From: an uncultured bacterium
Lineage (GTDB): Bacteria; Omnitrophota; Omnitrophia; Omnitrophales; Aquincolibacteriaceae
Direction of reading: 5' to 3'
DNA length: 64,000 nucleotides
NCBI GenBank assembly: GCA_964562525.1
Contig: CAZLTL010000001.1
Location: 32,950-96,949 of the forward strand
Shown here: one piece after another, positions 1 to 53,406 of the stretch
How positions within the stretch are numbered: position 1 is the first letter of the stretch
How the letters are laid out: each line of letters opens with the position of its first letter
Made by a program: the position numbers and the translations under genes
The notes under the pieces: generated by a model
The model's database searches: none
What the model was told of the DNA's origin: nothing
Seen by the model: only the letters and a program-made list of their open reading frames with translations

Positions 1-3000
1 TTTTGCGGCAATTGCCTGAGGCAAAAGGGATAGAGGCTTCGCAAGAATTACATTTTCCTCCCCGTGCACGGAAATTGCCGCCGACCGCTCCGCTGCGCTG
101 CCGACCGGAACTATAAAGACAGGCACACGATTTTGTTTTGCATCCTCGATGAAACCCATGACTTCCGACTTTTGATCGTCAGACACCTGTTCATCTGTCA
201 CCGCGAACAACATACGGATAGCTTTTGGAGAAGTGTAATTCGGCTCATCATCTTTTTTTGTTTTTTCGATAAAAGCCCCAAGCGCATCGGAGAAACTGGT
301 GCCGCCACCGGCCTCAAGTTTTTTGATCAAATCATAAACAATTTTCTTGGAAGATCTTTTTAAAGGATCCGTGTTTTGGGTTGTTTCATGCGAAACCAAA
401 AGTGTCGGGTCATTTTCAAATAAGCCCAACTCAAAACGTAAAGGCTGGTCGCGATACCCCCTCGTTTCTCGCTCTTCGTTATGCTCAAAAAGCGCTTCAA
501 GTAAAACAAACCCGATAAGCTTCGCTAATTTGATCGGCTCACTACCTGGTGTTCCCCATCCCATACTTCCACTGCGATCAAAAATAATACTGATCGACAT
601 GAGCACCGGCAACTTCTTGACCTCATCCACCATCGCAGGCTGCCCCATTGCCGCTTCCACCAAATGATCGTCTCCCAGCGCTTCACCTTCCGTGAAAGGT
701 CCTACCTCGTTTGTCTTACGGACAGGCAATAAAAGCGCATCCAAAAATTCTTTTGTTTCGTCGATCAAACGCTTCACTTCCACTTTTCTTCCGCGTGCAA
801 CCGTCACCTTTTCTTTTTTCCAACTTAAATACTCCTGCCACTCTTTTACTGTAAATCCCCATTTTTTCGCGTCCGCTTCTTCGTCCATGTCAATTGTCAC
901 GCCGGAAGGTTTAAACGGCTGCAGCTTTGATTTCGTCGGCTTACTCGCGGCATCCTCCACGGATCCAATCCCCGTTAAACCGGTTAAGCCGGAAGCCTGT
1001 AAAGGCAAATCAAACCGCGCGCCGTTTCCACCTTCGGAGCTTTCTGCTGGAGATGAAGGCTCGGAACTTTGTCCCGCCGGCTGTCCTGCGCTGCTTGCAC
1101 CCTTTGGTTCTTGTCCGGGCTGATCGGATGATTTCCCTTGTCCTGGTTGTAGTGCGCCTTCGCCCTGCTTCCCTTCAAGGTTTTTCATGGCTTGCTGTAA
1201 GCCTTGCACCGAAGATTGCAAACCTTCCAAAGTCGAGTCCATGTTCTGCGCCGAACCCTGCATTTTTGCGGCTTGATTTTTGAATTCTTGAATGTTCTTT
1301 TGAACCGCTGCCGCTTGCGCCGAAAGAGTCGACACGTCGGGAGAACCTTCAGCCTCAAGATCTTTTGTGATTTGAGCGATTTGCTGTTTAATTTTTGCGG
1401 CCATCTCTTTTAGTTTTGCAGCTTGGTTTTTGAGCTGCTGAGCGTCTTGAGTTGCTTGCTCAGATTGATTTTGGGCTTGAAGCGCGTCCGGAGACCATGG
1501 CTGTTGCGCCGCCGCCTGCTTCGCCTGTTCTTTTGCCGACTGAGCGCCCTGCAAAACACTCCCGGCATCTTGCTGTAAACTTTGTGTGCCTTGGTCCAAG
1601 CTTGAAGCACCCGATTGAAGCGCTTCCGATAAACCGGATTGAGGCTGCTGAGCAGCGGAATCGCCAGCTTGCGAACCCAAACCCGAAGCTTGATTTTGCA
1701 TCTCACTCAAATTTTGACCCATTTGCCCAAGTTGACTTTGAAGCCCTTGAACTTGACTCGACAAACTATTTAATTGTTGCTCCAACCCGGTTAACATTTG
1801 CTGCATTCCTTTTGAGTCAGCGCCGGCTTGCTGCGTCGCGGCATCGCCTCCCATAGATAAAGGATTCTCAGATTGCTGCGGTGAAGGTGCTGATGGATTT
1901 TGGAATGGCTTGAACGGATTTTTATCGCCGGCCTGAGGTTGCTCGGGGTCAGTCTGCCCGGGTTGTCCGGAACCTGAACCGCTTTCCGTACTCGGCTGAG
2001 AGCTCCCTTGTAAAGCTTGCATCATGCCCTCAACGCCGCCTTGACCTCCGGGTTGACCCGCTTCTCCACCTGATTGCCCGGGTTGTCCTGATTGTCCCGG
2101 AGCATTCCCTTGTCCCGCAGAATCCTGCGCGGTTTGCCCTGATTGCATTTGCCCCTGAAATTGATTTTGCGATTGTTGAAGAGAGTTTTCAGCCATCTGT
2201 TGATGCTGTTTATTCATTTCATCTTTCGCGTCTTCTTTAACTTTGTTGGACGCTTCCAATTTCTGCATTTCTTGTTCAAGAGCAAGGTTATAAAGCCGCT
2301 CATAAGCCGGCCAGACTCTCGCGCCAAAAATATTTGTAAATTTTTCTAAGTCCAACTTTCCGCTATCCAGCAATATTTTGCCGGCGCCCCAGCCGCTTTC
2401 TGTTGCGGTTTGAAAATCCCCGAAAGATTTTTGAATTTCTTCAAGCACCGCCCTGTTTTCAAGGCGCGGGTCCTCCGCCACAAAGACCTCTTGTCCGTTC
2501 CGGCTTTCTTTTTTCACATTCACAAACATATATGTCAGCGAATCCAGATACTGGAGATGTAAGGGCATGGATGCCAACTTCGCTTTTGAAAATGAAATCG
2601 GAATTTGCGGTGAGTAGCGATCTTGAAAAACACGATGAATCCAAAGCACGGCACCCTTTTTAAAGGTATCGCTTAAACCTTGCTTAAACCCAAGCTGGGT
2701 TAGCGTCATCTGAATCACATGAGGCAAACTAAAAATATCCCACGCAATTCCGAAAGCCGGATGGTTTAGGATTTTGTCCGCAATGATTCTCTCGGAAGGC
2801 GCGCGCGCGTGATTGGTTCTTCCCAATGCTAAAAGCGCATGACCCAATACTCTTTCGCGCATCGCCGCGACACGATCCTTAAGCTCACCGTCTTCAAAAC
2901 GCGGTCGAAAGTCAGACGGTAAATATTGCAGCTCGCCTGTGCCGCCATCTATACCATTTTGGAAGTGCCAAAAACCACCCGACACAGGGCGCATTTCGAC

Positions 3001-5919
3001 ATGTTCCCCCGCAAGCGAGCTGACATAGCTCTGCAGCTCAGCGAACACTTTTTCCATATGCGGCTTTTCTTCAGGAAGCGGAGCTCCTTGTCGGGAGTCT
3101 AAAGCATCAAAAACAGATTTTAGATAGGCAAGCGTTCCAAATTGCGAATCCGTAATTTGTTTTTCGTAAAGAAATCCGCCCAGCACAATCGCGACCGCTC
3201 GTTGGCCGGCGTAGCGATTTAAAAATGCCGTTGTAGAAAGCCCCGCGGCCTTATAAGCCAAAACAGCTTGGGCATAAAGCCCATCAAAAAAGACTCCGGA
3301 TCCCGCGCCGCCGGCAACGCCTTCCTTTATTTCAAGGCCGGCACCGCCATCGCGGGCAAATTGCCGGCCTTGCTCAAAAAGTGCTTCTAAAGCTTGGTCA
3401 CCAAACTCATCTTTATAATCATCCAACTTTGCCCCTTCAGGCATATGCTCTACGCGTTCAACGACATCAATCGCGTAGGTTAAAAACTCCCATTCCGCAG
3501 GAACCTTCAAAATTCTTCCGCGGCCAGAAATATCATCCGAGAGGTAATGAATAGCTTCATGCTTGATGGTTGAACGTAAAATAAGCTCGCGGTCTTTTTC
3601 AGACTCGGCCCCTTTTACTGTCATTGATTTGGGATTGGGATTCACCTTGATATTCTTAAAAAGAAGGCTGTAGTGCCCCCACGAATTAATGATTTGCGAA
3701 AGGCCTTCAAGCTGATGAAGTGCTTTCTGCTTCCAGCTTTCAATGGGTCCTTCAAAATCATTTGCGGACATTAAATTGCGAATATCGGTGGTTAAAATAT
3801 CTTTGGAAAGCTGGTCCGATAGACGCTCTTGATCCGGTTGGCTGTCAGGGTAAAGCTCTTCTGTAAACTCTTGAATGATGGTTAAACGCAGGGCTTGGTA
3901 ATCTGCATCGCCTTTACCCACACCTAGTGTTTCGATTTCACGCAAAACACTTTGCGCTGATTCATGCCCAACCAGATCAGCCGGCAAGCCATTTGTCGCA
4001 GCATAAGCATCATCGAGCTTCGATTGTCCAATCGTTTTTAATTTGGGTTTATTTAAATCATCCACAATTTGATAAAAATCACCGAGAGCTCCTCGAAACT
4101 CCTCTGCGTCTTCTTGATTGAGAGCATTAAGCATTTCGAGCTTATAAGCATAAAACCGCTCTACGCCTTCTTTAAAATCTTTCGGCACTGCATAAGGAGC
4201 CCTTGCTTCGGAACGTACCAGACCCGACTGAAGCTGATCGCGTGCCGTGCCTGAGCGAGCTGTCCCCCGAACACCCGCCATTGCCGCGCTAATTTCGGAG
4301 CGGCGGTTTTCAGGCGAAGCGAGGCTAGCAACCTCAGGAGCCGTTTGCGAGAGATTGACCATGCGCAAAAATTGCTGCACCTGAGATGATTCAAGCATGG
4401 CGCGACGGTAGGTTTTCTTCGACTCTTTCAAATCAAATCCACCCGCATTCGGCATAATTGACACATATCCGTATCCCGCTGATTTTAATTTCTCTAAAAC
4501 TCCGGCTTGATGAAAACCACCCGCAACCAAAATAGCGTGATTCTGTTTTTTAGCCTGCATTTGCTTTTGCAAGTTTTCAATAAAACCAATTTCCCGTTCT
4601 TCCGCCACTTTGTAAAAATCCAGCGCTTTCAAAAAAGCTTTGTCGAAATTGGCGTCAAAATCAGCACCTTGCAGCTCTTTCCATAGATTGGAAGGTTTAA
4701 TCTCGGAGTTGCGCTGCTTTACTTTTTGCCACTCATCCGATGTCAGCCCCAACAACAAAAGTTTTCTTAGATAAAAAATCTTTCGATAAACACTCAAAAT
4801 AGCTTGCTCTTCCGGCTGAGGTGCCAATTTTGAGACAATTTCCCATGTCAGCTGTTCCATCTCTTTCATCAACGCAGAGGGTTCCACTTCCTGCATCAAA
4901 GCATTCATCCCTGCCCAACGCGTCCACTCAGGGTAATTCTTAAATTCAAAACCCTTGGGCTGCATCTCAAGCACTAACTCTTCCAACACCGCCCGCATCT
5001 GCGACAACTTCGGCGACAATTCACGAATTTGCTTCACTAAACTTTGCGGGGCTTTATTGGACTCAAGCCATTTCACCAAACGCTGCGACTCTATCTCGGC
5101 TAACTCAGGATTAATTTTTCCTTCCATCTCTTTTAGTTTGAAATACCGCACCAGCATCGGATACTCGAATTGGTGCTTGGGGTTAAGCAAATCCATTTGC
5201 AGAGACGCTTGTGCCTGAAGATTGATTTTGTACAAAGTTTCGGGTAAGGCCTGCGCGGCCGTTTCAGCCTGATCCACCGCTTTTAAAAACTGTAAAAGCT
5301 CCGGCTTCAAAACACTTCCCGCTTTTTTCTGAAATAAAACTGATAAGCGATCCATCGCCGCGGCAAGCTCGGTGTCGCGGCTGATCATTTCACGGAAGGT
5401 TGTTAAATTGTCAGCATAGTCCATCGCTGATTCCGCGCCTTGCCCTTCCGCACAATTTTTTTCGCAATTTTGGTCAATCGCCTGATCCAGCAGAAATATT
5501 TCCGCGCCCGTTAACTCGCCTCTTTCGAGCAAGCGCTCACCCACCAATCGGCTGGGCTCAGCCTCTTCGTAGAAGCGGTATAAGTCGGGTTCAAGTTTTT
5601 GAGCTGCGCCTTCAAGCATGAGTAAATTGATTCCATACTCTTGATTTAAAAATGAAATCAAACTGCGAATGTTTTTTTGCACCGGCAAACTTGCGTGGGC
5701 ATCTTGAATTAAAACAACTGACTTGCCATTGATTCCCTCATAACTTGACTGGATGCTGCCGAACTCAGAAGGAATTTGCTGCGGTAAGGTGACGGCATCG
5801 ACCGTGCCTTCCAAGGCTTGCATCACTTGCGACCAAGAAAGGGGTGCATTTTGTGTCATGATAAAAATCACGACCAAAACCAACGCAACTGACTTTTTAA
5901 AACTTGCGATAAACATCAT
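1..5919 (-). CDS. Giant secreted multidomain protein of at least 1973 aa; the C-terminus lies beyond the left edge of the window. It has a signal peptide, a TraB/GumN(Tiki)-like N-terminal region, a HEAIH motif, a Gln/Gly/Ser-rich low-complexity segment with coiled coil, and a VWA domain (MIDAS DRSGSM...GGGT...TDE).
   Basis: I translated the minus strand by hand from the ATG at 5919 (MMFIASFKKSVALVLVVIFIMTQNAPLSWSQ...). The frame stays open to position 1 with no stop. The ORF track omits it because there is no in-window stop codon. The VWA motifs IIFDRSGSMGW, LEAGGGTSF and LFAVTDEQ lie at about 60 to 620. The TraB/GumN-like motifs VVLIQDAHAS and AILVAGGFHQAGVLEKLKSAGYGYV lie at about 4480 to 5740. 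Confidence 0.75.
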   Translation of the reverse strand, partial: MMFIASFKKSVALVLVVIFIMTQNAPLSWSQVMQALEGTVDAVTLPQQIPSEFGSIQSSYEGINGKSVVLIQDAHASLPVQKNIRSLISFLNQEYGINLLMLEGAAQKLEPDLYRFYEEAEPSRLVGERLLERGELTGAEIFLLDQAIDQNCEKNCAEGQGAESAMDYADNLTTFREMISRDTELAAAMDRLSVLFQKKAGSVLKPELLQFLKAVDQAETAAQALPETLYKINLQAQASLQMDLLNPKHQFEYPMLVRYFKLKEMEGKINPELAEIESQRLVKWLESNKAPQSLVKQIRELSPKLSQMRAVLEELVLEMQPKGFEFKNYPEWTRWAGMNALMQEVEPSALMKEMEQLTWEIVSKLAPQPEEQAILSVYRKIFYLRKLLLLGLTSDEWQKVKQRNSEIKPSNLWKELQGADFDANFDKAFLKALDFYKVAEEREIGFIENLQKQMQAKKQNHAILVAGGFHQAGVLEKLKSAGYGYVSIMPNAGGFDLKESKKTYRRAMLESSQVQQFLRMVNLSQTAPEVASLASPENRRSEISAAMAGVRGTARSGTARDQLQSGLVRSEARAPYAVPKDFKEGVERFYAYKLEMLNALNQEDAEEFRGALGDFYQIVDDLNKPKLKTIGQSKLDDAYAATNGLPADLVGHESAQSVLREIETLGVGKGDADYQALRLTIIQEFTEELYPDSQPDQERLSDQLSKDILTTDIRNLMSANDFEGPIESWKQKALHQLEGLSQIINSWGHYSLLFKNIKVNPNPKSMTVKGAESEKDRELILRSTIKHEAIHYLSDDISGRGRILKVPAEWEFLTYAIDVVERVEHMPEGAKLDDYKDEFGDQALEALFEQGRQFARDGGAGLEIKEGVAGGAGSGVFFDGLYAQAVLAYKAAGLSTTAFLNRYAGQRAVAIVLGGFLYEKQITDSQFGTLAYLKSVFDALDSRQGAPLPEEKPHMEKVFAELQSYVSSLAGEHVEMRPVSGGFWHFQNGIDGGTGELQYLPSDFRPRFEDGELKDRVAAMRERVLGHALLALGRTNHARAPSERIIADKILNHPAFGIAWDIFSLPHVIQMTLTQLGFKQGLSDTFKKGAVLWIHRVFQDRYSPQIPISFSKAKLASMPLHLQYLDSLTYMFVNVKKESRNGQEVFVAEDPRLENRAVLEEIQKSFGDFQTATESGWGAGKILLDSGKLDLEKFTNIFGARVWPAYERLYNLALEQEMQKLEASNKVKEDAKDEMNKQHQQMAENSLQQSQNQFQGQMQSGQTAQDSAGQGNAPGQSGQPGQSGGEAGQPGGQGGVEGMMQALQGSSQPSTESGSGSGQPGQTDPEQPQAGDKNPFKPFQNPSAPSPQQSENPLSMGGDAATQQAGADSKGMQQMLTGLEQQLNSLSSQVQGLQSQLGQMGQNLSEMQNQASGLGSQAGDSAAQQPQSGLSEALQSGASSLDQGTQSLQQDAGSVLQGAQSAKEQAKQAAAQQPWSPDALQAQNQSEQATQDAQQLKNQAAKLKEMAAKIKQQIAQITKDLEAEGSPDVSTLSAQAAAVQKNIQEFKNQAAKMQGSAQNMDSTLEGLQSSVQGLQQAMKNLEGKQGEGALQPGQGKSSDQPGQEPKGASSAGQPAGQSSEPSSPAESSEGGNGARFDLPLQASGLTGLTGIGSVEDAASKPTKSKLQPFKPSGVTIDMDEEADAKKWGFTVKEWQEYLSWKKEKVTVARGRKVEVKRLIDETKEFLDALLLPVRKTNEVGPFTEGEALGDDHLVEAAMGQPAMVDEVKKLPVLMSISIIFDRSGSMGWGTPGSEPIKLAKLIGFVLLEALFEHNEERETRGYRDQPLRFELGLFENDPTLLVSHETTQNTDPLKRSSKKIVYDLIKKLEAGGGTSFSDALGAFIEKTKKDDEPNYTSPKAIRMLFAVTDEQVSDDQKSEVMGFIEDAKQNRVPVFIVPVGSAAERSAAISVHGEENVILAKPLSLLPQAIAAK

Positions 5920-6078
5920 GTTTTCTTAAATAGACAGACTCTAAGCTGCATATGTTTAAATTCCTTTAATAAAAGGATGCCCTCTACATCTGCCTATGTC
6001 AAAAAAAACAAGATAACAAATCATAGCAAAAACTATCATTTAAATAATAAATAACGTATTTACTATCAAATAATTAGA

Positions 6079-6102
6079 AAAGGTGAGTTAAAAAACACCT
6101 TC
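6079..6102 (-). terminator. Candidate intrinsic terminator downstream of the yfcH-like gene (stem AAGGTG/CACCTT followed by a T-rich tract on the minus strand).
   Basis: An inverted repeat was seen directly, followed by TTCTAATTATTT on the minus strand. Confidence 0.3.
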
Positions 6103-6132
6103 TTAACTTTGGGAGCTAGGAAGGTTTCTGAG

Positions 6133-7047
6133 CTAGGTTGACAAGGTTGAGAGTAAGGCGGATTCCAAAACAGGATAGCGAAAGTGAAAACCGGCTTTAA
6201 GGATTTTCTTGGGAACGGCACGCTGCCCCCCTAAAAGCATGGATGCCATTTCACCTAAAAGGAGATAGAGCGAAAAAGCAGGCACGGGAGCCCAAGACGG
6301 TCGATCTAAAACTTTGCCGAGCGACGCGCAAAAATCTTTCATCCGAACCGGATTGGGCGCACAAGCATTAAAAGGTCCCGCCACATCCGCTCGCTGAATG
6401 GCAAATAAAATCATTCCGACAAGATCGTGAATGTGAACCCAAGGGAACCATTGCTTGCCGGAACCCAAAGGTCCGCCAATTCCCCACTGAAAAGGCGGAA
6501 TCATTTTTGCCAAAGCGCCCTTTTTTTCTTCCAAAACAATTCCGATGCGCGGCAGAACGACCCGCACACCATGACGCATCGCTTGCAACGCGGCTTCTTC
6601 CCATTCCACGGATAAATCCGCGAGAAAACCATGACCTCGGTGATGCGACTCATCCACTTCACCTTCAGGTACCGATCCGTAAAATCCCACGGCAGACGCA
6701 TTAACAAGCACCTTAGGCTTCAAAGTACACTTTTCAATTGCTTGCACAATGACGCGTGTCGAATCAAGACGGCTCGAGCGCAGTTTTTCCTTTTGCGCAC
6801 GAGTCCATCGTTTATCAGCAATCCCTTCACCGCACAAATTAATGACCGCATCCGCGCCTTCCAAACATGAAGCCCAACTATTTACAGAGCGACCATCCCA
6901 AACAACCGTCTCAACCTGAGAATTGGGCGCCAAATTATTTTTTTTAAATCCGCGCGAAAGTAAAAAAACCTGGTGTCGGCTTTGAACCAAAGCTTGGACT
7001 AAATAAGTCCCCACCAAACCCGTGCCGCCGGCAATAACAACTTTCAT
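6133..7047 (-). CDS. TIGR01777/YfcH-like NAD-dependent epimerase/dehydratase family protein (SDR with a DUF1731-type C-terminus).
   Basis: N-terminus MKVVIAGGTGLVGTYL with a Rossmann GxxGxxG motif. Length 304 aa. Overlaps the upstream SRPBCC gene by 4 nt. Confidence 0.75.
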   Translation of the reverse strand: MKVVIAGGTGLVGTYLVQALVQSRHQVFLLSRGFKKNNLAPNSQVETVVWDGRSVNSWASCLEGADAVINLCGEGIADKRWTRAQKEKLRSSRLDSTRVIVQAIEKCTLKPKVLVNASAVGFYGSVPEGEVDESHHRGHGFLADLSVEWEEAALQAMRHGVRVVLPRIGIVLEEKKGALAKMIPPFQWGIGGPLGSGKQWFPWVHIHDLVGMILFAIQRADVAGPFNACAPNPVRMKDFCASLGKVLDRPSWAPVPAFSLYLLLGEMASMLLGGQRAVPKKILKAGFHFRYPVLESALLSTLST

Positions 7048-7508
7048 GCTGTTCCCTTCTCAAAAAAATCAGCGATCACTGTTTTCCGGTAATTGAAAAT
7101 TTTCTCCACTTCATTTTTTACGAACAACGCTCTCACAATATCTCCTAAGGGTCCCAGCGGAACTTCATATTTCACTTCATCTACCATGAGCGTTCCACCG
7201 TCTTTCGGGATAAAGCGATGCGTGTGAATCCATGTCTTGTAAGGGCCTTTTACCTGAGTATCCGTAAAAAAATGCGGCGGGTCATAATCGGTGATGACAG
7301 TTTGCCATTTCATGGGAATACCATAGAGGCGAATCGTGTAATCAATGACGGTCCCTTTCGCCATGGGAATCGGACTTGGAGTTAAGATTTTAAAACCTAA
7401 ATTAGGGGGCGTGACATGATCCAGGTTTTCAGGCTTTTTAAAAAAATCAAAAACACGATCAACAGAATAAGGTAAAAACTGCTCGCACGCTAACACGTGA
7501 AGGCTCAT
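7044..7508 (-). CDS. SRPBCC (polyketide cyclase/START-like) domain protein.
   Basis: 154 aa with the composition and length typical of Polyketide_cyc2. Translationally coupled to the YfcH-like gene; the two are fused in some genomes. Confidence 0.6.
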   Translation of the reverse strand: MSLHVLACEQFLPYSVDRVFDFFKKPENLDHVTPPNLGFKILTPSPIPMAKGTVIDYTIRLYGIPMKWQTVITDYDPPHFFTDTQVKGPYKTWIHTHRFIPKDGGTLMVDEVKYEVPLGPLGDIVRALFVKNEVEKIFNYRKTVIADFFEKGTA

Positions 7509-8245
7509 GATGCAGTCTTGAGCTTTTCGGCAAGCGTTTGCTGAAGTTGAGCCTGAAAAACTTGCGCTTTTTGCTTAAGCTGCTCAAGGATCACCCCCAC
7601 TTGCGTCTGAACACTTTCAACTACCTGTTCTTTGGAAGGAATGAAAGACTGCCAGCCGGCACTGCGTAAAGCCAAAAGCACAGCATAAACCGCGACATGA
7701 TCCGGAGTTGTGAGCTCCGTTAAATCTGTCTGAGGCGCCTCCACTTTTCGATTTTCGGTCACACGGTCATTACCAAGCTGAGTTTCAAAAACAACACGGT
7801 CCATTTGAAAGCGCACTTTTTCAATTACAAAAGAAACTGAGGGGGCTTTAATGACACCCTCGGAACCGGTCCCCATAACCCGTTTCAAAGGCCTAAGCTC
7901 AAGCACATTTGTTTCCGAAATTGATTTTTTACTCAGATACACTTCATCCACAAAAACTTCGAGACGCTTAATTTTAAAAATCCCTTTGGTTAGGCCGCTC
8001 GCGTCATACTCCGCCGTCACCTTAGAAATTTGAGCAAGCTTATGATCGCCATACCCTTCAAAATTCGAAAGGCGAACATTATGAATCGTCATTTTCTGAG
8101 ACGCGAATCCCCAACGCACCGACCCCACGGATGTCTTCACGCCCAGCCAACGCTCAAACGTGCTCGCGATTAAATAATTACTTCCGAAATAAATTCCCGC
8201 AAAAACCACTACCGCGGCAACAATTAAGCTTCGAATAAATTTCAT
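7505..8245 (-). CDS. Hypothetical membrane-anchored protein (N-terminal TM helix).
   Basis: ORF overlaps its neighbours by 4 nt, indicating operon membership. Hydrophobic N-terminus IVAAVVVFAGIYFG. Confidence 0.55.
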   Translation of the reverse strand: MKFIRSLIVAAVVVFAGIYFGSNYLIASTFERWLGVKTSVGSVRWGFASQKMTIHNVRLSNFEGYGDHKLAQISKVTAEYDASGLTKGIFKIKRLEVFVDEVYLSKKSISETNVLELRPLKRVMGTGSEGVIKAPSVSFVIEKVRFQMDRVVFETQLGNDRVTENRKVEAPQTDLTELTTPDHVAVYAVLLALRSAGWQSFIPSKEQVVESVQTQVGVILEQLKQKAQVFQAQLQQTLAEKLKTAS

Positions 8246-8253
8246 AAACCGTC

Positions 8254-10629
8254 CTATTGAGAATTCGCCGTATTCGAATCGGATTGATTCGAGTTGGATA
8301 AAAAGGCGTTAATCAACCCCGCCGCGATATCCGTTTTACTCGGACTGGCTGACCCGTTTGCGCCGCTCGAAGTTGAAGCTTGAGTACCGGTTAATGCATC
8401 CAACAAACTTGCCGGTTTTTGCTGTGATGGATAAATTTTCACGGGAACAGCACTGTCATCCGTAGGTACCGCCATACCGCCCGCTGCGGAAGCATCCGGG
8501 CTTGAAGCTCCCGTTGTCGTTCCCAAAAGCTGACTTAACCGGTCTACCCGTTGGCTTCCATCCGTCTTTCTTGTAAATTGATCCGCTAAAAGCTGGCCCG
8601 CTTTATTTCTCACAATTTCTGCGAGTAAGTATTGAATATCCGGCAAAATGCTCATCCTTGCCAAAGTGCCAGTCACCGTAAGCGGAATTTGCATTTGGCC
8701 TTGAGAGTTTAAAGTATAAGCAAGTTCATGCACCCGCCCGGCAAGCTCCGCCATAATTTCTTCATGAATCCAAATCGTTGGACGAGCATTGATGCTCCCG
8801 TCTACTCCCACATTCACGGCCCCGCTTACTTTTACGTCAGGAGAGACCACATCAAATTGATTAAACCGAATCGCGCCGCGTTCGATCGAAAAATCCTCAT
8901 CCATCGTCTCAAAAGGAGTGTCGCGACGAGCGCGGCGTTCTTTTAAAGAATCCGACATACGCTGATCCAAAGCGGAACTTAATCCGGGAATGGCGGCAAG
9001 CTTGGATAAAATTTCTTCCAACACATTCATATTCCTTAAAACCGGATCATCCACTCGAAAATGACCCGATCCGGAAAGTGAAGGCAAAATAACTTCCGGA
9101 ACTTTCCCGTTCCCGCCCGCATTAATCTCAAAAGAAAGCGTCCCTTCCATTGCCGGCGCGTCAGGCGAAGCCGGTGGCGGCGCAAGGTCTTTTAAGTTGA
9201 GATTTCGCGCACGCGCTTCCAAACGAAAAACCGGTGCGGTAAAAAGATTTTGGACATTCAGTCGCCCTTCAGCCGGACTGCTGCCCAAACTCATATTCCA
9301 AGCATCCAAACTCAGCTGGTCACCGCGCAGATTGCCGGTGAGTTGAATCTGGTTCAAATCCGAGGGAAGATTTTTCAGACGAATACGCCCTTGATCATAA
9401 CGAAAATCAATATCCCCCAAGGGGGTTTGTCCGGGCTCGAAGCTCAGCCGGCGTATATCAGCATGAACGCGCCCTTGTGGCGCATCAGATAAACCGCTGG
9501 AATAAATCGCGGGAATCTTTGCCGTCATTTCAGCCCAATTAAGTGAGTTGAGATCTAAATCCACCTGCGCCGGCCCTACAATGACACGACCTAAGTTAGA
9601 AGCCTCAGCCTTACCTTGAAAACTCAAATTAGTTGTACTTGAAAAAACAGCCGCCTTGACTTGAACGTCAAAAGGCGCGGAAAGACTCACATTGCTGGCC
9701 TTAACATCCAACTTTTGTACCAATCGGCCTGCATCCAAAGTTTCGACAAAACCATCTTTGAGCAATAAATCCGCGTTAACGGAATCCGGTTTACCATTCC
9801 GTATTTTAAGCTGAGAAATATCCGCCTCCAGCTTTCCACCCCAATCCGTCAGCGGAACATTTTGCATAATTTGGGGCAAACTGCGCACCAACTCATCGCG
9901 CTCAATCAAATCTAAATCTGCTTCCAATCTCAAATCATCCACGCGAATATCCGCGCCCTGATTTTCTAATTTAACCACCCCTCTCAAATTAACGTTTTTC
10001 TTATTTCCAAAAAAAGCACCTGACACGTTAAATTCCATGGGCTTAAAAAGTGAAACATTCTTTACCGTCAGCGCTAGATTTTTTAAATCCAGCTGAAGCG
10101 GCGCAAGCGCAGAGTCATCCTCATAATGGATATCAATATTCTTCAAATCGACTTGCGCAATAAGAAATGAGGAAAGTGCCGGCGCCAATCCATTTGCGGC
10201 GGTGTTCTTTTGCTCACCTGAACTTTGCGTTTCAGATTCAACGCTGACTTGCGGAGGATTAATTCCAAGAACCCTGACAACGCCATCCTCGCCCTTCACC
10301 GCGCGGATTTTGGCGCCATCAATAAAAACCGATCCAACTTGAACACTACGCCGCAAAAGGGGCGCTAATTGCAGTACGGCACCGGCATTCTGAACTTGAA
10401 GCACAGGCTCATCATTGCTTAGAACTTGAACGCCATCCACTTCCAAAGCAAGACCACCGCGCCAAACAAGCGCAATATTGCCGATTTTAACCGCGTGTCC
10501 CAAAGCCTTTGCTGCTTCTTTTTCTATCGTATCGCGGTAACGATTGGCATCAAAAGTAACCGCGAATAAAACAATTCCCGCGGTGATCAAAAAAATCAAA
10601 ACGGTGAGAATAATAATTATTTTTTTCAT
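8254..10629 (-). CDS. AsmA-family protein (outer-membrane biogenesis/lipid transport family).
   Basis: MKKIIIILTVLIFLITAGIVLFAVTFDANRYRDTIEKE is a typical AsmA N-terminal anchor plus domain start. Length 791 aa. Confidence 0.7.
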   Translation of the reverse strand: MKKIIIILTVLIFLITAGIVLFAVTFDANRYRDTIEKEAAKALGHAVKIGNIALVWRGGLALEVDGVQVLSNDEPVLQVQNAGAVLQLAPLLRRSVQVGSVFIDGAKIRAVKGEDGVVRVLGINPPQVSVESETQSSGEQKNTAANGLAPALSSFLIAQVDLKNIDIHYEDDSALAPLQLDLKNLALTVKNVSLFKPMEFNVSGAFFGNKKNVNLRGVVKLENQGADIRVDDLRLEADLDLIERDELVRSLPQIMQNVPLTDWGGKLEADISQLKIRNGKPDSVNADLLLKDGFVETLDAGRLVQKLDVKASNVSLSAPFDVQVKAAVFSSTTNLSFQGKAEASNLGRVIVGPAQVDLDLNSLNWAEMTAKIPAIYSSGLSDAPQGRVHADIRRLSFEPGQTPLGDIDFRYDQGRIRLKNLPSDLNQIQLTGNLRGDQLSLDAWNMSLGSSPAEGRLNVQNLFTAPVFRLEARARNLNLKDLAPPPASPDAPAMEGTLSFEINAGGNGKVPEVILPSLSGSGHFRVDDPVLRNMNVLEEILSKLAAIPGLSSALDQRMSDSLKERRARRDTPFETMDEDFSIERGAIRFNQFDVVSPDVKVSGAVNVGVDGSINARPTIWIHEEIMAELAGRVHELAYTLNSQGQMQIPLTVTGTLARMSILPDIQYLLAEIVRNKAGQLLADQFTRKTDGSQRVDRLSQLLGTTTGASSPDASAAGGMAVPTDDSAVPVKIYPSQQKPASLLDALTGTQASTSSGANGSASPSKTDIAAGLINAFLSNSNQSDSNTANSQ

Positions 10630-10715
10630 AAAACCAACGTAGTTAAAAACGTGACAAGAGCGTGCTCTATTCTAAAGCTTCTGACGCGAGAATCAAGAAG
10701 GGTATTCAGCACTAT

Positions 10716-10750
10716 AAAAATAAAAAAGCCCCCCTCAAATTGAGGAGGGC
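10716..10750 (-). terminator. Rho-independent terminator (GCCCTCCTCAATTTGAGGGGGGC followed by a T-tract on the minus strand) after the small PLDc_N gene.
   Basis: GC-rich hairpin at 10728-10750 with AAAAATAAAAAA at 10716-10727 on the plus strand. Confidence 0.5.
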
Positions 10751-10770
10751 TTTCAAATCAAAGCTGAAAC

Positions 10771-10935
10771 TTATTTTCTTCCGAGAAGCCAATAAAGGAT
10801 CAAACCGATAACAGGAAGAAGAAGAATCAACACAATCCAAAGAACCTTCTTACCCGTAGGCAAACTGCTCTTAAAAACATTGATAATCGCGAGAACGTCC
10901 AAAACCAATACCACTAAACCGAGTAAACCGCTCAT
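10771..10935 (-). CDS. Small (54 aa) membrane protein of the PLDc_N (phospholipase-D N-terminal-like) family. Not in the ORF track.
   Basis: Hand translation gives MSGLLGLVVLVLDVLAIINVFKSSLPTGKKVLWIVLILLLPVIGLILYWLLGRK. The LWIVLILLLPVIG..LYWLLGR signature is typical of the family. Confidence 0.55.
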   Translation of the reverse strand: MSGLLGLVVLVLDVLAIINVFKSSLPTGKKVLWIVLILLLPVIGLILYWLLGRK

Positions 10936-10991
10936 GCAACCTCCTTGATTGAACTGAAAGATTTTCTATTTTAAACGTGAAAATGAAGCCT

Positions 10992-11033
10992 GAAAACAAA
11001 AAAGGCGTGCGGATTACTCCGCACGCCTTTTTC
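10992..11033 (-). terminator. Strong bidirectional Rho-independent terminator (GGCGTGCGGA-ttac-TCCGCACGCC flanked by A/T tracts) at the 3' end of the PKD-repeat gene.
   Basis: Perfect 10-bp GC-rich stem at 11004-11027 with T-tracts on both strands. Confidence 0.65.
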
Positions 11034-11043
11034 TCGGCAAAGA

Positions 11044-13509
11044 TTACTTAGCGTATTTCTTTGCTTTAACTTTAATCAACGGAACCGGACCCGCATTCAC
11101 ATCCGCAACAAACCCGGAGGTTGCTGTCGAACAATGCGTTCCTTTGCCGTCATCAACGGTCAACGAAACATTGTACTGGCCGAACTTGCTGTACGCATGC
11201 TGCGCAGCAGCGCCTTCGCCTGTATTGCCGTCACCGAAGTTCCAAAGATAGCTGAGCTTATCGCCATCCGGATCGGAAGACTGAGCGCCATTGAACTGGC
11301 TCTGTTCTTCCGTGCAGCATACAAGGTTCGGACCTGCGTTCGCAATCGGAGGCGTATTCACGCTTACCGTTGTGTTCGCAGAACCCATACTGCAAGCTGA
11401 ACCCGCGCCGTCATTGGCTGTCACAGTTACAGTATAGTTGCCACCCTGTTTATAAGCGTAGGAAACATTGGATCCGCCTTCGATAGTCGTGCCATCGCCG
11501 AAGTTCCAAGTATACTTAAGCTTATCGCCATCAGGATCATTTGAAGCCGATGCGTCAAGCGATACGGTTTCACCCGTACAAGCATTGCGCGCCTGGTTCA
11601 AGCTCACCATCGGAGCGGAGTTGATGCGTACATTCAAGGCATCCATCGCTGTGGAGCAAGGTGTTCCCTTACCATCATCAACGGTTACGGACGCTGTATA
11701 GCTTCCACCCTTAGCATAAGTATGGCTGACCGACTTACCTTCTTTAACGGTACCGTCGCCCAAGTTCCAAGTGTACTTAGCGCCTTCAGGACCGTTTGCA
11801 TTCAAGGTCACCGCGCCGCCGGAGCAAGAGAAAACATTCTCGCCCGCGTCAACAACCGGAGACTTATTCAAACGCACGGAAACCGTGTCGGTTGAAACAT
11901 TGCAGCCTGCGCCGGAGTTATCCGTTACAGTCAAGCGCGCGGTATATTCACCGGCCTGGCTGTAAACGTGAGTCACTTTTGCGCCTTCAGCTGTTTGGCC
12001 ATCGCCGAAATCCCATGAGTACGCCAAACCATCGTTTTCAGCGTCATAAGATTTGCTGCCGTTAAAAGTGACCGCGTATTCGGCCGCTTGGCTTGTCAAG
12101 CAAAGAGCAACGTCATCGCCTGCAACCGCAACCGGTGCGCTGTTCACTTTAATTTGAGAGCTGCAACCCGCGAGAGAACATTCTGTGTTCTGACCATCAT
12201 TCACCGTAAGAGAAACATTATATGTTCCGCCCTGGGAGAAAGTCTTCGAAACAGAAGCACCTTCCGCTGTCGTACCATCGCCAAAGTTCCAGAGATATCC
12301 AAGTTCTTTGGATTCACCATCGCTCGAACCGACGCCGCTGATTGAAACAGCCTGACCGACGCAAGCAGATTGAGGAACGCTCAAGCCGCAAACCGGAGGT
12401 GTATTCACCAAAACGGATTGGGTAGTTGTTTTCTTTTCGCAATGAAGACCGGAGTTGTCGCTAACAGTCAAGGCCACATTATAACTTCCGCCTTTTCCAT
12501 AAACGTGAGTCACAACCGGTTCTGTGCTGGTAACGCCATCACCAAAGTCCCAAAGATAAGTAATCTTATCTTTGTTGGTGTCATAGGAGTCACGCGCGTC
12601 AAATTCAAATACGTTACATGCGCTTGGTTCCGGAGCCGGAGCAACCGGAGCTTCAAAGCCGCCGCGTTTGAAATAAATCGGAAGAGCATTACCTTTATCA
12701 TCGGTAAACTGAACGCCCGCGTTACCGCGAGTTTGGTTCGTTGTAGTTACCGTGTAAGCCAAACGACGCGCATCATCATTACCGAGAGTCACAGGCGTTT
12801 CAGCCCATTGACCGCTCACGGAATCCGCAACGTCATAAGATTTGCCGGTTGCGCCGTCCTGAAAACGTCCAACGCCGCCGTCTTTATCAAGGTCGAAATT
12901 GCGCGCAACGATATTGGTTACGCCATTCGGAATCGCAGGATAAAAATTGATTTGATCTCCCTTGCGAGGAAGCAAGCGGAAATAAAATTTTTCGCTGAAT
13001 GTTTCAGCGTAGTCCGGAGTGATCTTGAACTTAAACAAGTTCTGGTCATCGCCTTTGGTCGTTTGAACCAAAACGCGAAAACGATAAAAATCACCCACGT
13101 CTTTACCGGTATCAGGCTTAAAGCTGCCAAGCTGTGTCCAAGAACCATCACCCTTGGATGAACCCGCGCCAAAAGTTTCAGAAGCAAGAACTTCTTTACC
13201 TTCAACTGAGAAAACGGTTTCAGTATCAGCAACGGCTTTGCCGAACCCGCCGATAGCGTCAACTTTGCCGGATGCATCCGCGTCATAAACGCTAATGCTT
13301 ACCGCTTCAGTAGAAGCCTTCGGTACGTCAACAAAAAGAGCCATCTGCGTGTCATCTTTGCCACGAAGCGGATCCCCTTCCGGACCGAAAAGGTAAAAAT
13401 ATTCAGCCTTCGAGTTTTCTTTCGGCACTTCATAAGCAAAAGTGCTTACCGGAAAAGCAAGAGACAGAACAAGTAACGGAGCAATAAAGCCCGCAAGTTT
13501 CTTGATCAT
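11044..13509 (-). CDS. Secreted surface protein with multiple PKD repeats.
   Basis: Recurring YxWDFGDG/WNFGDGT signatures occur at least six times, followed by ...SVSDNxG/TVxDGxG. Signal peptide MIKKLAGFIAPLLVLSLAFPVSTFA. The start is set at the internal ATG rather than the track start at 13560. Confidence 0.8.
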   Translation of the reverse strand: MIKKLAGFIAPLLVLSLAFPVSTFAYEVPKENSKAEYFYLFGPEGDPLRGKDDTQMALFVDVPKASTEAVSISVYDADASGKVDAIGGFGKAVADTETVFSVEGKEVLASETFGAGSSKGDGSWTQLGSFKPDTGKDVGDFYRFRVLVQTTKGDDQNLFKFKITPDYAETFSEKFYFRLLPRKGDQINFYPAIPNGVTNIVARNFDLDKDGGVGRFQDGATGKSYDVADSVSGQWAETPVTLGNDDARRLAYTVTTTNQTRGNAGVQFTDDKGNALPIYFKRGGFEAPVAPAPEPSACNVFEFDARDSYDTNKDKITYLWDFGDGVTSTEPVVTHVYGKGGSYNVALTVSDNSGLHCEKKTTTQSVLVNTPPVCGLSVPQSACVGQAVSISGVGSSDGESKELGYLWNFGDGTTAEGASVSKTFSQGGTYNVSLTVNDGQNTECSLAGCSSQIKVNSAPVAVAGDDVALCLTSQAAEYAVTFNGSKSYDAENDGLAYSWDFGDGQTAEGAKVTHVYSQAGEYTARLTVTDNSGAGCNVSTDTVSVRLNKSPVVDAGENVFSCSGGAVTLNANGPEGAKYTWNLGDGTVKEGKSVSHTYAKGGSYTASVTVDDGKGTPCSTAMDALNVRINSAPMVSLNQARNACTGETVSLDASASNDPDGDKLKYTWNFGDGTTIEGGSNVSYAYKQGGNYTVTVTANDGAGSACSMGSANTTVSVNTPPIANAGPNLVCCTEEQSQFNGAQSSDPDGDKLSYLWNFGDGNTGEGAAAQHAYSKFGQYNVSLTVDDGKGTHCSTATSGFVADVNAGPVPLIKVKAKKYAK

Positions 13510-13735
13510 GGAGTAACTCCTGGTTTGGTTATTGGTTTTAGTTCTGATAATTAAGGACAAAATAGTTTTCTGCCCTAAAACTGCTTCTCAGACGCATTTT
13601 TGAAATAAATATTCACTCAAACTTCTAAAAATGAATCTTAAGAGAGGGCATATTGTAGACCAAAAAGAGAAACGGACAAGCAAAATCTAGCTTTGTAGTG
13701 GGGGTAAAATTATTTTTATAGGACGCGGTCAGACT

Positions 13736-24367: not shown

Positions 24368-24465
24368 TTCTTCACCTTTCACTCTGGGCTAATGCCCAAC
24401 CGCGGAACCTTAAAATTTTATGAAACAAAACTCAATCTCATGCGTCTTACTTAAAAGAGAAAGCG

Positions 24466-24471
24466 TATAAT
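24466..24471 (+). promoter_or_regulatory. TATAAT -10-like box 9 nt upstream of the ydbH-like start codon, with no Shine-Dalgarno; candidate near-leaderless promoter.
   Basis: gcgTATAATagtgaacttATG seen directly. Confidence 0.25.
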
Positions 24472-24480
24472 AGTGAACTT

Positions 24481-25332
24481 ATGAAGATTTTGAAAGTTTT
24501 GCTTTTGGGAGTTCTGGTTGGGTTGCTTTCAGCCGCAGCCGGAGGTGTGTATTTATGGTCAAAAAGAATTCCTCTATTGGAGAAAACCGTTAATCAGGCA
24601 GCCCATGAATTATTCGAAGGGACCTTGCGTCTTAAGAGCGTGGATATCAAGAGCGGCAAATTACTCATTCAAGGGCTTGAAGGCATCATGACCATGGACA
24701 CACGCAAAGTTCCGATTCAAATCGAAAAGCTGGAAACCGAAACACCGCTATGGGAGTCTCTTTTGACCAGTCGCAGTGAAATTCGCTTTCACGGCTTCCG
24801 CCCCCAAAACGCCGAACAAAGCACGCCGCTCTCTGGCATTCTACGCCTTCGCGGAGGAAAGACTCAATCTGTGAGCCTGCGCACCCAGCTCAACCGGGTT
24901 TGGATCGAAGACTATGCTTGGATTGACCCTGCCAGCTTTGACGGCTTACGCGGTTTTGTTTCCGGAAACATCCGCTTAAAAATTGACTCCTCTGAAAAAG
25001 CAATGTTTGAAATTGACCTCAAGTCCGAACCCGAAGGCGGCGAAGTCCCAGCGCGGTTCCTTGAATTCGCTCTACCCTATTTACCCAAAGCACAAAACAC
25101 CAAAGAACTGCGAAACCGAATTCAAAAAGTGGAAGGGGTTAAATTTGTCAACAGCATCATTTCCGCGAAAACAACCGAACCCGGAAAAATTCAGGCCGAA
25201 ATGAAAATGCTTTTCCCCGAAATCAACATCAACCTTAACCTGAATCTGACGATACTGGTGGATGAAGAACACGCATTTTTGCGCGCCTTCAAACTATTCG
25301 GCCTATTTAAAATTCAAGCAGGTGCTAAATGA
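24481..25332 (+). CDS. Membrane-anchored protein, possibly a short YdbH-like (DctA-YdbH domain) protein.
   Basis: N-terminal TM helix. Sits immediately upstream of ynbE-like and ydbL-like genes, mirroring the E. coli ydbH-ynbE-ydbL arrangement. The call rests mainly on this context. Confidence 0.4.
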   Translation: MKILKVLLLGVLVGLLSAAAGGVYLWSKRIPLLEKTVNQAAHELFEGTLRLKSVDIKSGKLLIQGLEGIMTMDTRKVPIQIEKLETETPLWESLLTSRSEIRFHGFRPQNAEQSTPLSGILRLRGGKTQSVSLRTQLNRVWIEDYAWIDPASFDGLRGFVSGNIRLKIDSSEKAMFEIDLKSEPEGGEVPARFLEFALPYLPKAQNTKELRNRIQKVEGVKFVNSIISAKTTEPGKIQAEMKMLFPEININLNLNLTILVDEEHAFLRAFKLFGLFKIQAGAK

Positions 25333-28007: not shown

Positions 28008-28161
28008 TCTACCACAAAAAGCTCTGAACTCAAAAATCAGAAATCAAAACCAGAGATTAATACCCAGCGCTTACAAACTTCCCGGAAGCAAGCCGGCATC
28101 GGCCTTCCGCTTTGGTTTTGAGTTTTGATCTTTGAACTCTAATCTGCTATCATTCCGCCCT

Positions 28162-29802
28162 ATGTTAACAGCCAATGGCGTCACAATTCAGTTTGGTCAG
28201 CGGGTTCTTTTCGATAATGTGAACCTCGCTTTTTCACCCGGCAACTGCTATGCCATAATCGGCGCGAACGGTTCCGGCAAGTCGACCTTCATGAAGGTGC
28301 TTGCGGGTGATCTCGAGCCCACAGCGGGTTCCGTTTCACTCGGCCCCAATGAGCGTCTTTCGATGCTGCGTCAAGATCAGTTCGCTTTTGACGAGCACAC
28401 TCCCGTCAACACCGTCATCATGGGACATAAAAAACTTTATTCCGTGATCCAAGAAAAAGATGCCATTTACGCCAAACCTGATTTTAGCGATGCGGACGGC
28501 GCACGCGCGGCGGAACTTGAAAGTTTATTTGCCGAAATGGATGGTTGGAACGCGGAAGCCGAAGCTGAAAAATTACTTAGTGAGCTTGGCATCGCAGAAA
28601 AATTTCACCGCGTTCAGATGAAAAATCTCGAAAGCGATCAAAAAGTGCGTGTGCTTTTAGCGCAAGCTCTTTTCGGCAATCCCGATGTTTTGCTCTTGGA
28701 CGAACCGACCAACCATCTTGACGTTGAAACTGCCATGTGGCTTGAAAATTTTTTAGCTGAATTTAAAAACACCGCCATCGTGGTTTCGCATGATCGCCAT
28801 TTTCTCGATCAAGTCAGCACGCATACTTGCGACATTGATTTCGGGAAAATCACTTTTTTCTCGGGTAACTATTCTTTCTGGAAAGAGTCGAGCGAACTGG
28901 CTTTACGGCAAAAATCCGATAAGAATAAAAAAATGGAAGATAAACGCGCTGAACTCCAATCTTTTATCGCCCGCTTCAGCGCGAATGCTTCCAAAGCAAG
29001 ACAAGCCACTTCACGTAAAAAGATGCTCGAAAAACTGACGCTTGAAGATATCAAGCCCTCAAGCCGCAAATATCCGTTCATTGGTTTCAATTGCGAGCGC
29101 GAAGCCGGCAATGATTTACTCGCCATTGATAAACTCAGCAAATCCATTGACGGAAAATTGATGTTCAAAAACCTCAATTTTGAAATTCACAAGGGCGACA
29201 AGATCGCTTTTTTCGGAAGAAATGACTTGGCGCGCACCACTCTCTTTCAAGTTTTAGCGGAAGAAATCCCCGCGGATTCCGGGACTTTTAAATGGGGCGC
29301 TTCCACAACCCGCTCTTACTTTCCGAAAGACAATAAAAAATATTTCGATGTCGATCTCTCCCTGATTGATTGGTTGAGACAATTCTCAAAAGAAACCCAC
29401 GAACAGTTTATCCGCGGATTTTTGGGACGCATGCTTTTCACGGGTGAAGAATCATTGAAAAAAGTAAATGTCCTTTCGGGCGGCGAACGCGTGCGCATGA
29501 TGCTTTCCAAAATGATGCTTGTGAACGCCAACGTGCTGATCATGGACGAACCAACCAACCATTTGGATTTGGAATCGATCAGCGCTTTAAACGACGGGCT
29601 TCAGAAATTTAAAGGTACTTTGCTTTTCTCGACGCAAGACCATCAATTCATTCAAACCGTCGCTAACCGCATCATCGAGATTACCCCACTTGGATATATA
29701 GACAAGAGCGGCGTTACATTGGATGACTATTTGGCTGATCCTGAAATTCAAGCCAAACGCACCGCCCTCTACGCCGATTCCTCTGTCCAAGCTCAAGCTT
29801 GA
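28162..29802 (+). CDS. ABC-F family ATPase (second paralog).
   Basis: Walker A motifs GANGSGKST and GRNDLARTT, and two LSGGE signatures. The start is set at the ATG (MLTANGVTIQF). Confidence 0.85.
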   Translation: MLTANGVTIQFGQRVLFDNVNLAFSPGNCYAIIGANGSGKSTFMKVLAGDLEPTAGSVSLGPNERLSMLRQDQFAFDEHTPVNTVIMGHKKLYSVIQEKDAIYAKPDFSDADGARAAELESLFAEMDGWNAEAEAEKLLSELGIAEKFHRVQMKNLESDQKVRVLLAQALFGNPDVLLLDEPTNHLDVETAMWLENFLAEFKNTAIVVSHDRHFLDQVSTHTCDIDFGKITFFSGNYSFWKESSELALRQKSDKNKKMEDKRAELQSFIARFSANASKARQATSRKKMLEKLTLEDIKPSSRKYPFIGFNCEREAGNDLLAIDKLSKSIDGKLMFKNLNFEIHKGDKIAFFGRNDLARTTLFQVLAEEIPADSGTFKWGASTTRSYFPKDNKKYFDVDLSLIDWLRQFSKETHEQFIRGFLGRMLFTGEESLKKVNVLSGGERVRMMLSKMMLVNANVLIMDEPTNHLDLESISALNDGLQKFKGTLLFSTQDHQFIQTVANRIIEITPLGYIDKSGVTLDDYLADPEIQAKRTALYADSSVQAQA

Positions 29803-29834
29803 GATCTGCGTGTTTTGGGTCGATATTTAGACCT

Positions 29835-53190: not shown

Positions 53191-53406
53191 AAAATAGTCC
53201 TGCTTTCCGGAATCCTGAAATGGAATCCAATATAATAGGAACACATTTCATACCACTTGCGCTAAGGGAGAAATGCTCGTTCGCGCATGAATATGTGCCA
53301 AATCGGATCACTCCCGTGACGGATTGAACCGCTTTAATTTTGGTTGATTTATGCTCGAGAATGAATAGGATGATCTCAACGTTTTAATTTTCATTGGGGG
53401 CCTTCT

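Follow-up and report, generated by a model that had tools for sequence, protein, structure and literature searches.

Giant proteins have been described in the Omnitrophota, the phylum to which the DNA studied here belongs. It was left unresolved whether these giants act as single chains or are cleaved; missing known cleavage points were seen as an obstacle to analysis, C39 or S8 peptidases were suspected, and the N-terminal regions were said to "generally lack identifiable domains" (West-Roberts et al., 2023 preprint). The catalogue of that preprint comprises proteins of at least 30 kaa (thousand amino acids, aa) and that of a complete-genome preprint of 2026 proteins of at least 10 kaa. The 2026 preprint reports the same kinds of enzyme domains and also remarks on the paradox between export and ATP- or NAD(P)-dependent domains; cleavage, linkers, motifs and TraB are unmentioned in it. 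The present study deals with a gene lying at one end of a stretch of 64,000 nucleotides from an uncultured Omnitrophota bacterium (family Aquincolibacteriaceae; contig CAZLTL010000001.1, positions 32,950 to 96,949), hereafter the window. Its product, the protein P0049, is a smaller relative of the described giant-protein phenomenon. The family of N-terminal modules that heads it, having the fold of the TIKI superfamily, and the short motifs that punctuate it are undescribed in the papers checked.

MARTX toxins and viral polyproteins are single chains of unrelated modules joined by short linkers and holding an in-chain protease. MARTX toxins are processed after Leu residues by a cysteine protease domain, with inositol hexakisphosphate as its activator. 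NorQ and CbbQ are MoxR-class ATPases acting with separate VWA proteins (NorD/NorQ, CbbO/CbbQ, CobT/CobS). The TIKI superfamily (Tiki, TraB/PrgY, GumN, EreA-C, Bcr135/136, ChaN, RRSP, HopBA1, PMT) includes esterases (the Ere enzymes), a haem-binding protein (ChaN), an inactive member (PMT) and site-specific endopeptidases (RRSP and Tiki). A parallel-sheet core and a His-Glu pair are common features of the superfamily; in both Bcr135 (H85/E113) and RRSP (H3902/E3930) the residues of the pair are 28 positions apart (PMC6254334).

The family of P0049 shares with the Omnitrophota giants of the 'multi-enzyme metabolic cluster' class its phylum, an N-terminal signal or transmembrane (TM) segment and a mostly sequence-unique cargo, and PGM/PMM, NUDIX, HEAT, SecA-DEAD and AAA_5 domains occur in both. 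However, P0049 falls below the published 10-kaa and 30-kaa catalogues and, unlike the giants as they have been described, its family has a defined conserved TIKI-fold head and defined recurrent motifs between blocks. Like MARTX toxins and viral polyproteins, P0049 is one chain of unrelated modules with short linkers and an in-chain protease, here a candidate; RRSP, a structural relative of its N-terminal module, is itself a MARTX module. It differs from MARTX in that the candidate protease has the TIKI fold, the candidate sites are RSExR, xSLG or RPExR motifs, processing is a proposal, and the cargo consists of housekeeping-type enzymes and not of known toxins.

The giant gene and its N-terminal module

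The 5' part of the gene occupies positions 5919 to 1 of the minus strand as a single frame of 1,973 codons, stop-free under translation table 11 and still open at base 1, the left edge of the window. Such a frame had been read in the first-pass annotation, which also remarked that it was missing from the list of open reading frames (ORFs); both statements are correct, and the list leaves out ORFs running past an end. The missing C-terminus was obtained not by extension of the contig but as a public protein: an exhaustive HMMER search with residues 574-1210 retrieved P0049 (NCBI; 3,312 aa, encoded on a 214,786-bp contig), whose residues 1-1973 are identical to the window ORF. Thus, the window holds the N-terminal 60% of the protein, and the remainder of the 9.9-kb gene (3,312 codons) lies beyond its left edge. 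In a Logan contig (L001), an independent assembly, the gene order is as in the window and the frame is open to the contig end. The full-length public copy carries no name, so that the novelty claimed for the protein stands.

Residues 1-30 (5830..5919, minus strand) form a signal-peptide-like or anchor segment with a KK-containing n-region, a 12-residue hydrophobic core and the sequence SWS-Q. It is the sole hydrophobic segment in the window part of the protein, in agreement with the Sec signal peptide proposed earlier, and 90 of 113 family members have an equivalent segment, about 68 aa ahead of the candidate catalytic His. The N-module follows (residues 44-511; 4387..5790). It consists of an alpha/beta core of the TIKI/TraB/Ere fold and of an all-helical insert of about 290 aa (165-456). 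In an alignment of 24 N-module sequences, Q72, H75, Q81, E103, G104, G138, Y168, F435, R442, G467, G468, H470 and P490 are invariant. His75, the candidate catalytic His (5695..5697), ends the IQDAH motif (residues 71-75) after a core strand; Glu103, the candidate catalytic Glu (5611..5613), belongs to an LEG motif 28 residues further on; Arg442 is at 4594-4596; and the second His motif, G467-G468-F469-H470 (4510..4521), is of the GxxH type. Among 48 homologues, an IQDAH-type motif is present in 43 and GG[FY]H in all 48, with a separation of about 390-400 aa.

The AlphaFold2 (AF2) model of the N-module has a predicted local distance difference test score (pLDDT) of 86.6. Its parallel beta-strand core flanked by helices is that of the TIKI superfamily, and the predicted H75/E103 pair, together with the second His, H470, and the likewise invariant R442, reproduces the His-Glu pair plus second His of these proteins. 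The spacing of the pair equals that of the Bcr135 and RRSP pairs. By sequence, no TraB, GumN, ChaN or Ere model of Pfam or NCBIfam matches the N-module at E<=1, PF01963 (TraB), proposed earlier as a check, included; a profile of the 24 N-modules matches no superfamily member of the PDB, and Foldseek returned no significant match for the model. Thus, the earlier Tiki/TraB proposal holds at the level of the fold and of the active site but finds no counterpart in the sequence models of TraB or of the rest of the superfamily; likewise, the suggested comparison of a structural model with Tiki/GumN folds yielded a confident model and a non-significant search. Of the two GxxH-type motifs that had been announced, GGFH is one, whereas the first reads QDAH and is not strictly GxxH. 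Besides this QDAH motif and the lack of a curated profile match, the N-module departs from the superfamily by the helical domain that splits the core into two halves, by its position, always N-terminal, behind a signal or anchor and ahead of thousands of variable cargo residues, and by its distribution, essentially restricted to the Omnitrophota and neighbouring candidate phyla. Taken together, these data show that the N-module is a new sequence family of the TIKI/TraB/erythromycin-esterase fold, with H75, E103, R442 and H470 as predicted active-site residues. We consider the anatomy and the family assignment described here highly probable.

N-modules head at least 422 confirmed loci, nearly all in metagenome-assembled genomes (MAGs) of Omnitrophota, with many paralogues per genome; the scan used one genome per GTDB species and the five closest sequences as query, and the count is a lower bound. 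A word-indexed search gave 48 giant proteins, mostly from MAGs of Omnitrophota and Elusimicrobiota, whose homology is limited to the first ~500-575 residues; the close relatives of the window protein all come from Omnitrophota MAGs. Behind the N-module, the cargo bears no relation from one member to another; dehydrogenases, PGM, phosphoesterases, HEAT, LRR and DnaJ are among it. Many of these ORFs exceed 3,300-3,900 aa even when cut by the 10-kb flanks of the scan. The genes may be clustered: two copies are 17 kb apart on contig MHFR01000012.1 (L018/L027), another locus (L051) also has two copies, and at L016 a short N-module ORF of 733 aa is found on the opposite strand.

Punctuation motifs at the borders of blocks

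The disordered linker between the N-module and the cargo of P0049 contains the motif RSEAR (residues 569-573; 4201..4215, minus strand), which we consider the first candidate processing site. Three further sites, RSEVR-1996, RSEAR-3150 and RSEAR-3178, are found in the protein, for about 0.06 expected by chance, and the punctuation motifs as a whole are about 70-fold over chance. Behind N-modules, 43 RSExR were observed where 1.0 was expected. In ORFs classified by hidden Markov models as carrying an N-module, 162 sites occur in 115k downstream aa (1.41 per 1,000 aa). By comparison, the density of RSExR is 0.11 per 1,000 aa over the 970 remaining ORFs at these loci, and the N-modules themselves (36.8k aa) contain no site. 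The first site is at most 250 aa past the end of the N-module in 37 of 45 ORFs. The flanks of the motif are linker-like (small residues, Pro, Ser, Thr), the median spacing between sites is 262 aa, and sites are never inside a Pfam envelope. In the L016 protein, a Glu-dehydrogenase N-domain starts 44 aa and a malic-enzyme N-domain 33 aa past a site, which corresponds to the natural N-terminal offsets of these domains. A recurrent, defined motif at module borders, as in polyproteins, is therefore present.

In most members, a single short motif, specific to the genome, punctuates the cargo. Members lacking RSExR show [AG]xSLG (for A.SLG, 37 observed against 1.5 expected) or RPExR, with the same positional pattern. 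The classes are nearly exclusive (RSExR only in 45 ORFs, xSLG only in 18, both in 5). All paralogues within one genome use a single class, and the x residue, too, depends on the lineage. For instance, the L009 protein (92-11695, plus strand) has 12 RPE[S/A]R and in the L041 protein (558-11042, plus strand) all nine of nine sites are RSESR; these two proteins, of ~3,500-3,900 aa, contain no Pfam domain.

Comparison with P0051, which is collinear with P0049 over ~3,200 aa at 30% identity, is also informative. Sites 569 and 1996 align exactly with P0051 sites, the former with RSEMR-576. Homology stops just ahead of the third site; beyond it, P0051 carries additional blocks that are bounded by sites, one of them with a Metallophos domain. 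Both proteins have a TM-like hydrophobic helix following the last motif site (region 3150-3182 of P0049, 3635-3663 of P0051); in P0049 this helix, of 23 aa, lies between two identical KRSEAR copies spaced by 28 residues, and a coiled-coil tail comes next. In two other members, a Tat-signal-like or TM-like sequence comes directly past RSEVR (P0005 residue 885, NNGLTSRRKFLGG; P0021 residue 695, VTRRSLFQIGAAALVGLSL); these sequences look like the N-terminus of an exported protein beginning at the site.

Because of such Tat-like sequences and of the start-codon-like x residues, it was considered whether RSE[V/L/M/I]R could encode an internal Shine-Dalgarno (SD) sequence followed by a start codon. 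This reading was rejected: the CGN and TCN codons form no GGAG, and the x codons include GTC, CTT and ATC. RSExR codons vary synonymously, and no SD sequence or start codon is formed, so that selection acts at the peptide level. A literature search found no paper mentioning the motifs. In the window, the only other RSExR within a long frame is an RSEIR in a 302-aa frame (24424-25329, plus strand) with no Pfam match, and it may be due to chance.

Cargo modules and genomic setting

The first cargo block begins with a module of ~630 aa bearing a gluzincin-like signature (residues 579-1210; 2290..4185, minus strand). An exhaustive HMMER search found it in 41 proteins (E-values down to 2e-88), the longest of 7,493 aa, and its place along the chain differs from one giant to another; within the N-module family it is confined to a small subset of members. 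The HEAIH motif pointed out in the first-pass annotation is the single HExxH of the window ORF, at residue 787. The putative zinc site, H787-E788-x-x-H791...E811 (3487..3561), is made of two His and a Glu followed by a second Glu 20 residues past the second His, all four invariant in 18 of 18 and in 11 of 11 aligned modules. We infer that H787, E788, H791 and E811 are gluzincin-type zinc ligands. Matches to curated peptidase families are weak (Peptidase_M78 in 4 of 11 members, best E 0.033; DUF6782 in one, 0.01; DUF3810 in one), and the profile of the module found no PDB relative. Next comes a low-complexity coiled-coil spacer rich in Gln, Gly, Ser, Ala and Pro (residues ~1215-1680; 880..2277), as had been noted earlier; its entropy is 3.2-3.7 bits with up to 26% Gln, it gives coiled-coil-type matches to SMC, Rad50 and CCDC22, and it can still be aligned to P0051 though diverged.

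The window part of the protein ends, about at the edge, with a VWA domain (residues ~1770-1973; 1..612). Its metal ion-dependent adhesion site (MIDAS) is intact: D1781, S1783 and S1785 in DRSGS, T1874 in GGGT and D1909 in TD. In an alignment of 14 VWA regions, six columns are invariant, namely the five MIDAS residues and M1786, and the MIDAS residues are conserved in the 25 homologues, giants that share the VWA domain as part of the cassette. A profile made from the 14 sequences matches 63 PDB sequences at E<=1 (best E 1.4e-4), nearly all VWA or integrin I-domains, CobT and midasin included. The VWA domain with a DxSxS...T...D MIDAS that had been recognized from the sequence is thus well founded. 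As for the Pfam match that had been proposed as a check, the query alone scores 12.3-16.5 bits with VWA_2, below the cut-off of 27, but its homologues P0051 (6e-5) and P0050 (0.0017) match the full model at the equivalent place. The single sequence of the region had no match in the PDB or in the word-indexed search, and its AF2 model has a pLDDT of 36. The absence of relatives for the central and C-terminal regions in the word-indexed search was a false negative: the exhaustive HMMER search gave the 41 relatives of the central region, and a local phmmer search against those matches gave the 25 VWA relatives.

Beyond the window, residues 2612-2727 of P0049 match AAA_5 (E=4.6e-19), with NorQ (E=4e-5) and CbbQ as closest solved relatives. 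The VWA domain, which comes first, and the AAA_5 ATPase are therefore in one ORF, split by RSEVR-1996. The pairing is also found in P0050 and P0051, where the order zincin, coiled coil, VWA, AAA, AAA_5 is kept, and the cassette of zincin, coiled coil, VWA and AAA+ recurs in ~25-40 giant proteins. The combination of domains, first described as unusual, is thus a recurrent one, and the N-module heads hundreds of Omnitrophota genes. As in NorQ/NorD, CbbQ/CbbO, CobS/CobT and RavA/ViaA, a MoxR-class AAA_5 goes with a MIDAS-bearing VWA. In contrast to these systems, the two partners of P0049 are in one ORF rather than in separate operon-encoded polypeptides, and a zincin-like module and a Q-rich coiled coil of 470 aa are ahead of them. 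Since the VWA domain shares its ORF with a MoxR-type AAA+, a MoxR-VWA machine is favoured over an adhesin.

Upstream of the giant gene, on the same strand, an AsmA gene, an unknown gene, an SRPBCC gene and an epimerase/DUF1731 gene overlap one another, and a spacer of 213 bp separates this gene string from the giant gene. The spacer is AT-rich, and the first-pass annotation had proposed an AT-rich promoter proper to the region, but a scan of it detected no sigma-70 consensus site, and no clear SD sequence was found ahead of the ATG. Gene neighbourhood is not conserved among the window, L002 and L004, and AsmA synteny is not kept at homologous loci; a functional tie to the neighbouring AsmA operon is not supported. 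Directly upstream of the AsmA gene string is the gene of an 838-aa protein with six PKD domains (11044-13560, minus strand). Elsewhere in the window, a 1,601-aa ORF (31553-36358, minus strand) has an N-terminal TPS secretion domain of the two-partner-secretion exoprotein type (E=2e-23) and is adjoined by ORFs of 556 and 585 aa (28132-31556, plus strand). A 1,165-aa ORF (44316-47813, plus strand) has no Pfam match at E<=1e-5, an ordinary ClpB-type chaperone gene is found at 50611-53244 (minus strand), and one tRNA gene at 57114-57187 (plus strand). No rRNA or further Rfam family was detected within the window.

A possible processed precursor, or a tethered scaffold

Considering these features, P0049 may tentatively be read as a polyprotein-like precursor, a reading that we place just short of an even chance. 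The motifs would be processing sites in flexible linkers; that they are cleavage sites we hold in similarly guarded terms, as a nearly balanced proposition. The membrane-proximal TIKI-fold head, a predicted His/Glu hydrolase, would cut at the motifs, first in cis just behind itself. Two pieces would thereby be released, a zincin-VWA subunit (block 1) and a MoxR AAA+ subunit (block 2), which would then act jointly as a MoxR-VWA remodelling machine. The N-module head is a plausible processing enzyme because its structural relatives include the endopeptidases Tiki and RRSP; by this analogy it may be the protease, an assignment that we regard as rather doubtful.

Several observations weigh against such a precursor. 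Throughout, cleavage is something that we infer, and the N-module could, by analogy with other members of the superfamily, be an esterase or a binder; Pfam TraB, ChaN and Ere models miss it, as does Foldseek at a significant level. Each genome uses one motif variant although its paralogous N-modules are only ~25-30% identical, and this genome-wide variant fits a single trans-acting factor at least as well as cleavage in cis. The putative metalloprotease of block 1 would provide an alternative processing enzyme. About 20 of the 88 N-module ORFs are devoid of all three motifs and of any other motif that recurs internally, and a universal motif sought in all giants with the zincin-VWA cassette was not found, most of them carrying no recurring motif. 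Conversely, a few motif copies belong to proteins devoid of an N-module: a 950-aa protein with an FBPase_3 domain, normally of ~365 aa, adjoins the family member P0008 (L004, 120-2972, plus strand) and has RSEVR past its enzyme part. Finally, there is a paradox of topology: export is expected from a Sec-type signal, whereas the cofactors needed by AAA+ ATPases and NAD(P) enzymes are cytoplasmic.

Among the other possibilities, an uncleaved, membrane-tethered scaffold survives best, although we judge it unlikely. In such a model, the motifs would be sites of modification, linkers or docking sites for a partner, a chaperone or the N-module, and fusion would serve co-localisation and stoichiometry. 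The linker-like sequence around the motifs agrees with this model, as do the many giants that carry no motif. In addition, the 2026 preprint treats giants as single long polypeptides with a signal-peptide or TM topology and mentions no cleavage, and midasin, found among the PDB matches of the VWA profile, joins AAA+ and MIDAS in one working uncut chain. It is more difficult to reconcile a scaffold with three chemically unrelated motif classes that follow a common positional grammar and are uniform in each genome, which is typical of the co-evolution of a protease and its sites. Moreover, sites coincide with natural enzyme N-termini, and the site comes after a hydrolase-like head, within 250 aa in most ORFs.

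In a second alternative, which appears a step less probable still, the motifs would be cleaved by a separate enzyme encoded in the genome or by a protease of the cargo such as the gluzincin-like module, the head being an esterase, a lipid or envelope hydrolase or an anchor. The constancy of the motif variant across the highly diverged N-modules of a genome speaks for it, together with the motifs sometimes found in proteins without N-module, the invariant HExxH...E of block 1, and the proposal of C39 or S8 peptidases (West-Roberts et al., 2023 preprint). Against it, motifs are 13 times as dense behind N-modules as in the remaining ORFs of the same genomes, few family members have the zincin module, and homologous loci showed no conserved protease gene nearby.

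The first-pass annotation favoured a surface or secreted protein for adhesion or processing; with a VWA/MIDAS that would bind an external ligand and a functional link to the AsmA operon, this idea now seems very improbable. The signal-peptide-like N-terminus and the intact MIDAS would suit this function, many VWA domains being adhesive (the profile matches include integrins, TRAP and MIC2), and attachment to hosts or prey has been proposed for Omnitrophota. Against it, the MoxR-type AAA+ further down in the same ORF makes an intracellular, chaperone-like pairing, the homologous loci lack AsmA synteny, and the cargo of the family mostly consists of cytoplasmic-type enzymes. Lastly, an artefact (assembly chimera, pseudogene, or fusion from a wrong genetic code), as might be feared for a very long gene of MAG source, has a negligible probability, given 5,919 nt without stop under table 11, the occurrence of the protein in NCBI and of the locus in the independent Logan assembly, an ORF GC content (47.7%) matching that of the window (46.1%), and a homologue collinear at 30% identity over ~3,200 aa, which points to purifying selection over its full extent.

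Whether giant proteins are cleaved is a question that this locus makes directly testable, and three handles are available. The first is a conserved, previously unrecognised hydrolase-fold head in hundreds of genes. The second is provided by the genome-specific motifs at block borders, which can be searched for in proteomes and used for in silico cutting before structure prediction. In the third, a VWA and a MoxR AAA+, normally separate partners, are joined through one motif and offer a clean test case. If processing were confirmed, genes would be organised in a way new to bacteria and the TIKI fold would gain a new function. Even if it were refuted, the motifs would amount to a linker grammar not described before, in a phylum that is poorly understood. 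It may also be imagined that Omnitrophota encode true cellular polyproteins, with dozens of paralogues per genome, each made as one chain of several thousand residues and cut at genome-specific motifs by a dedicated N-terminal TIKI-fold endopeptidase to set free groups of enzymes and machines such as the zincin-VWA and MoxR AAA+ pair, a generalization that we consider speculative and on the unlikely side. Cellular polyproteins would take the place of operons as a strategy of gene expression, one for which viruses and a few toxins are the only examples to date, and this strategy would probably extend to the giants of 10-150 kaa.

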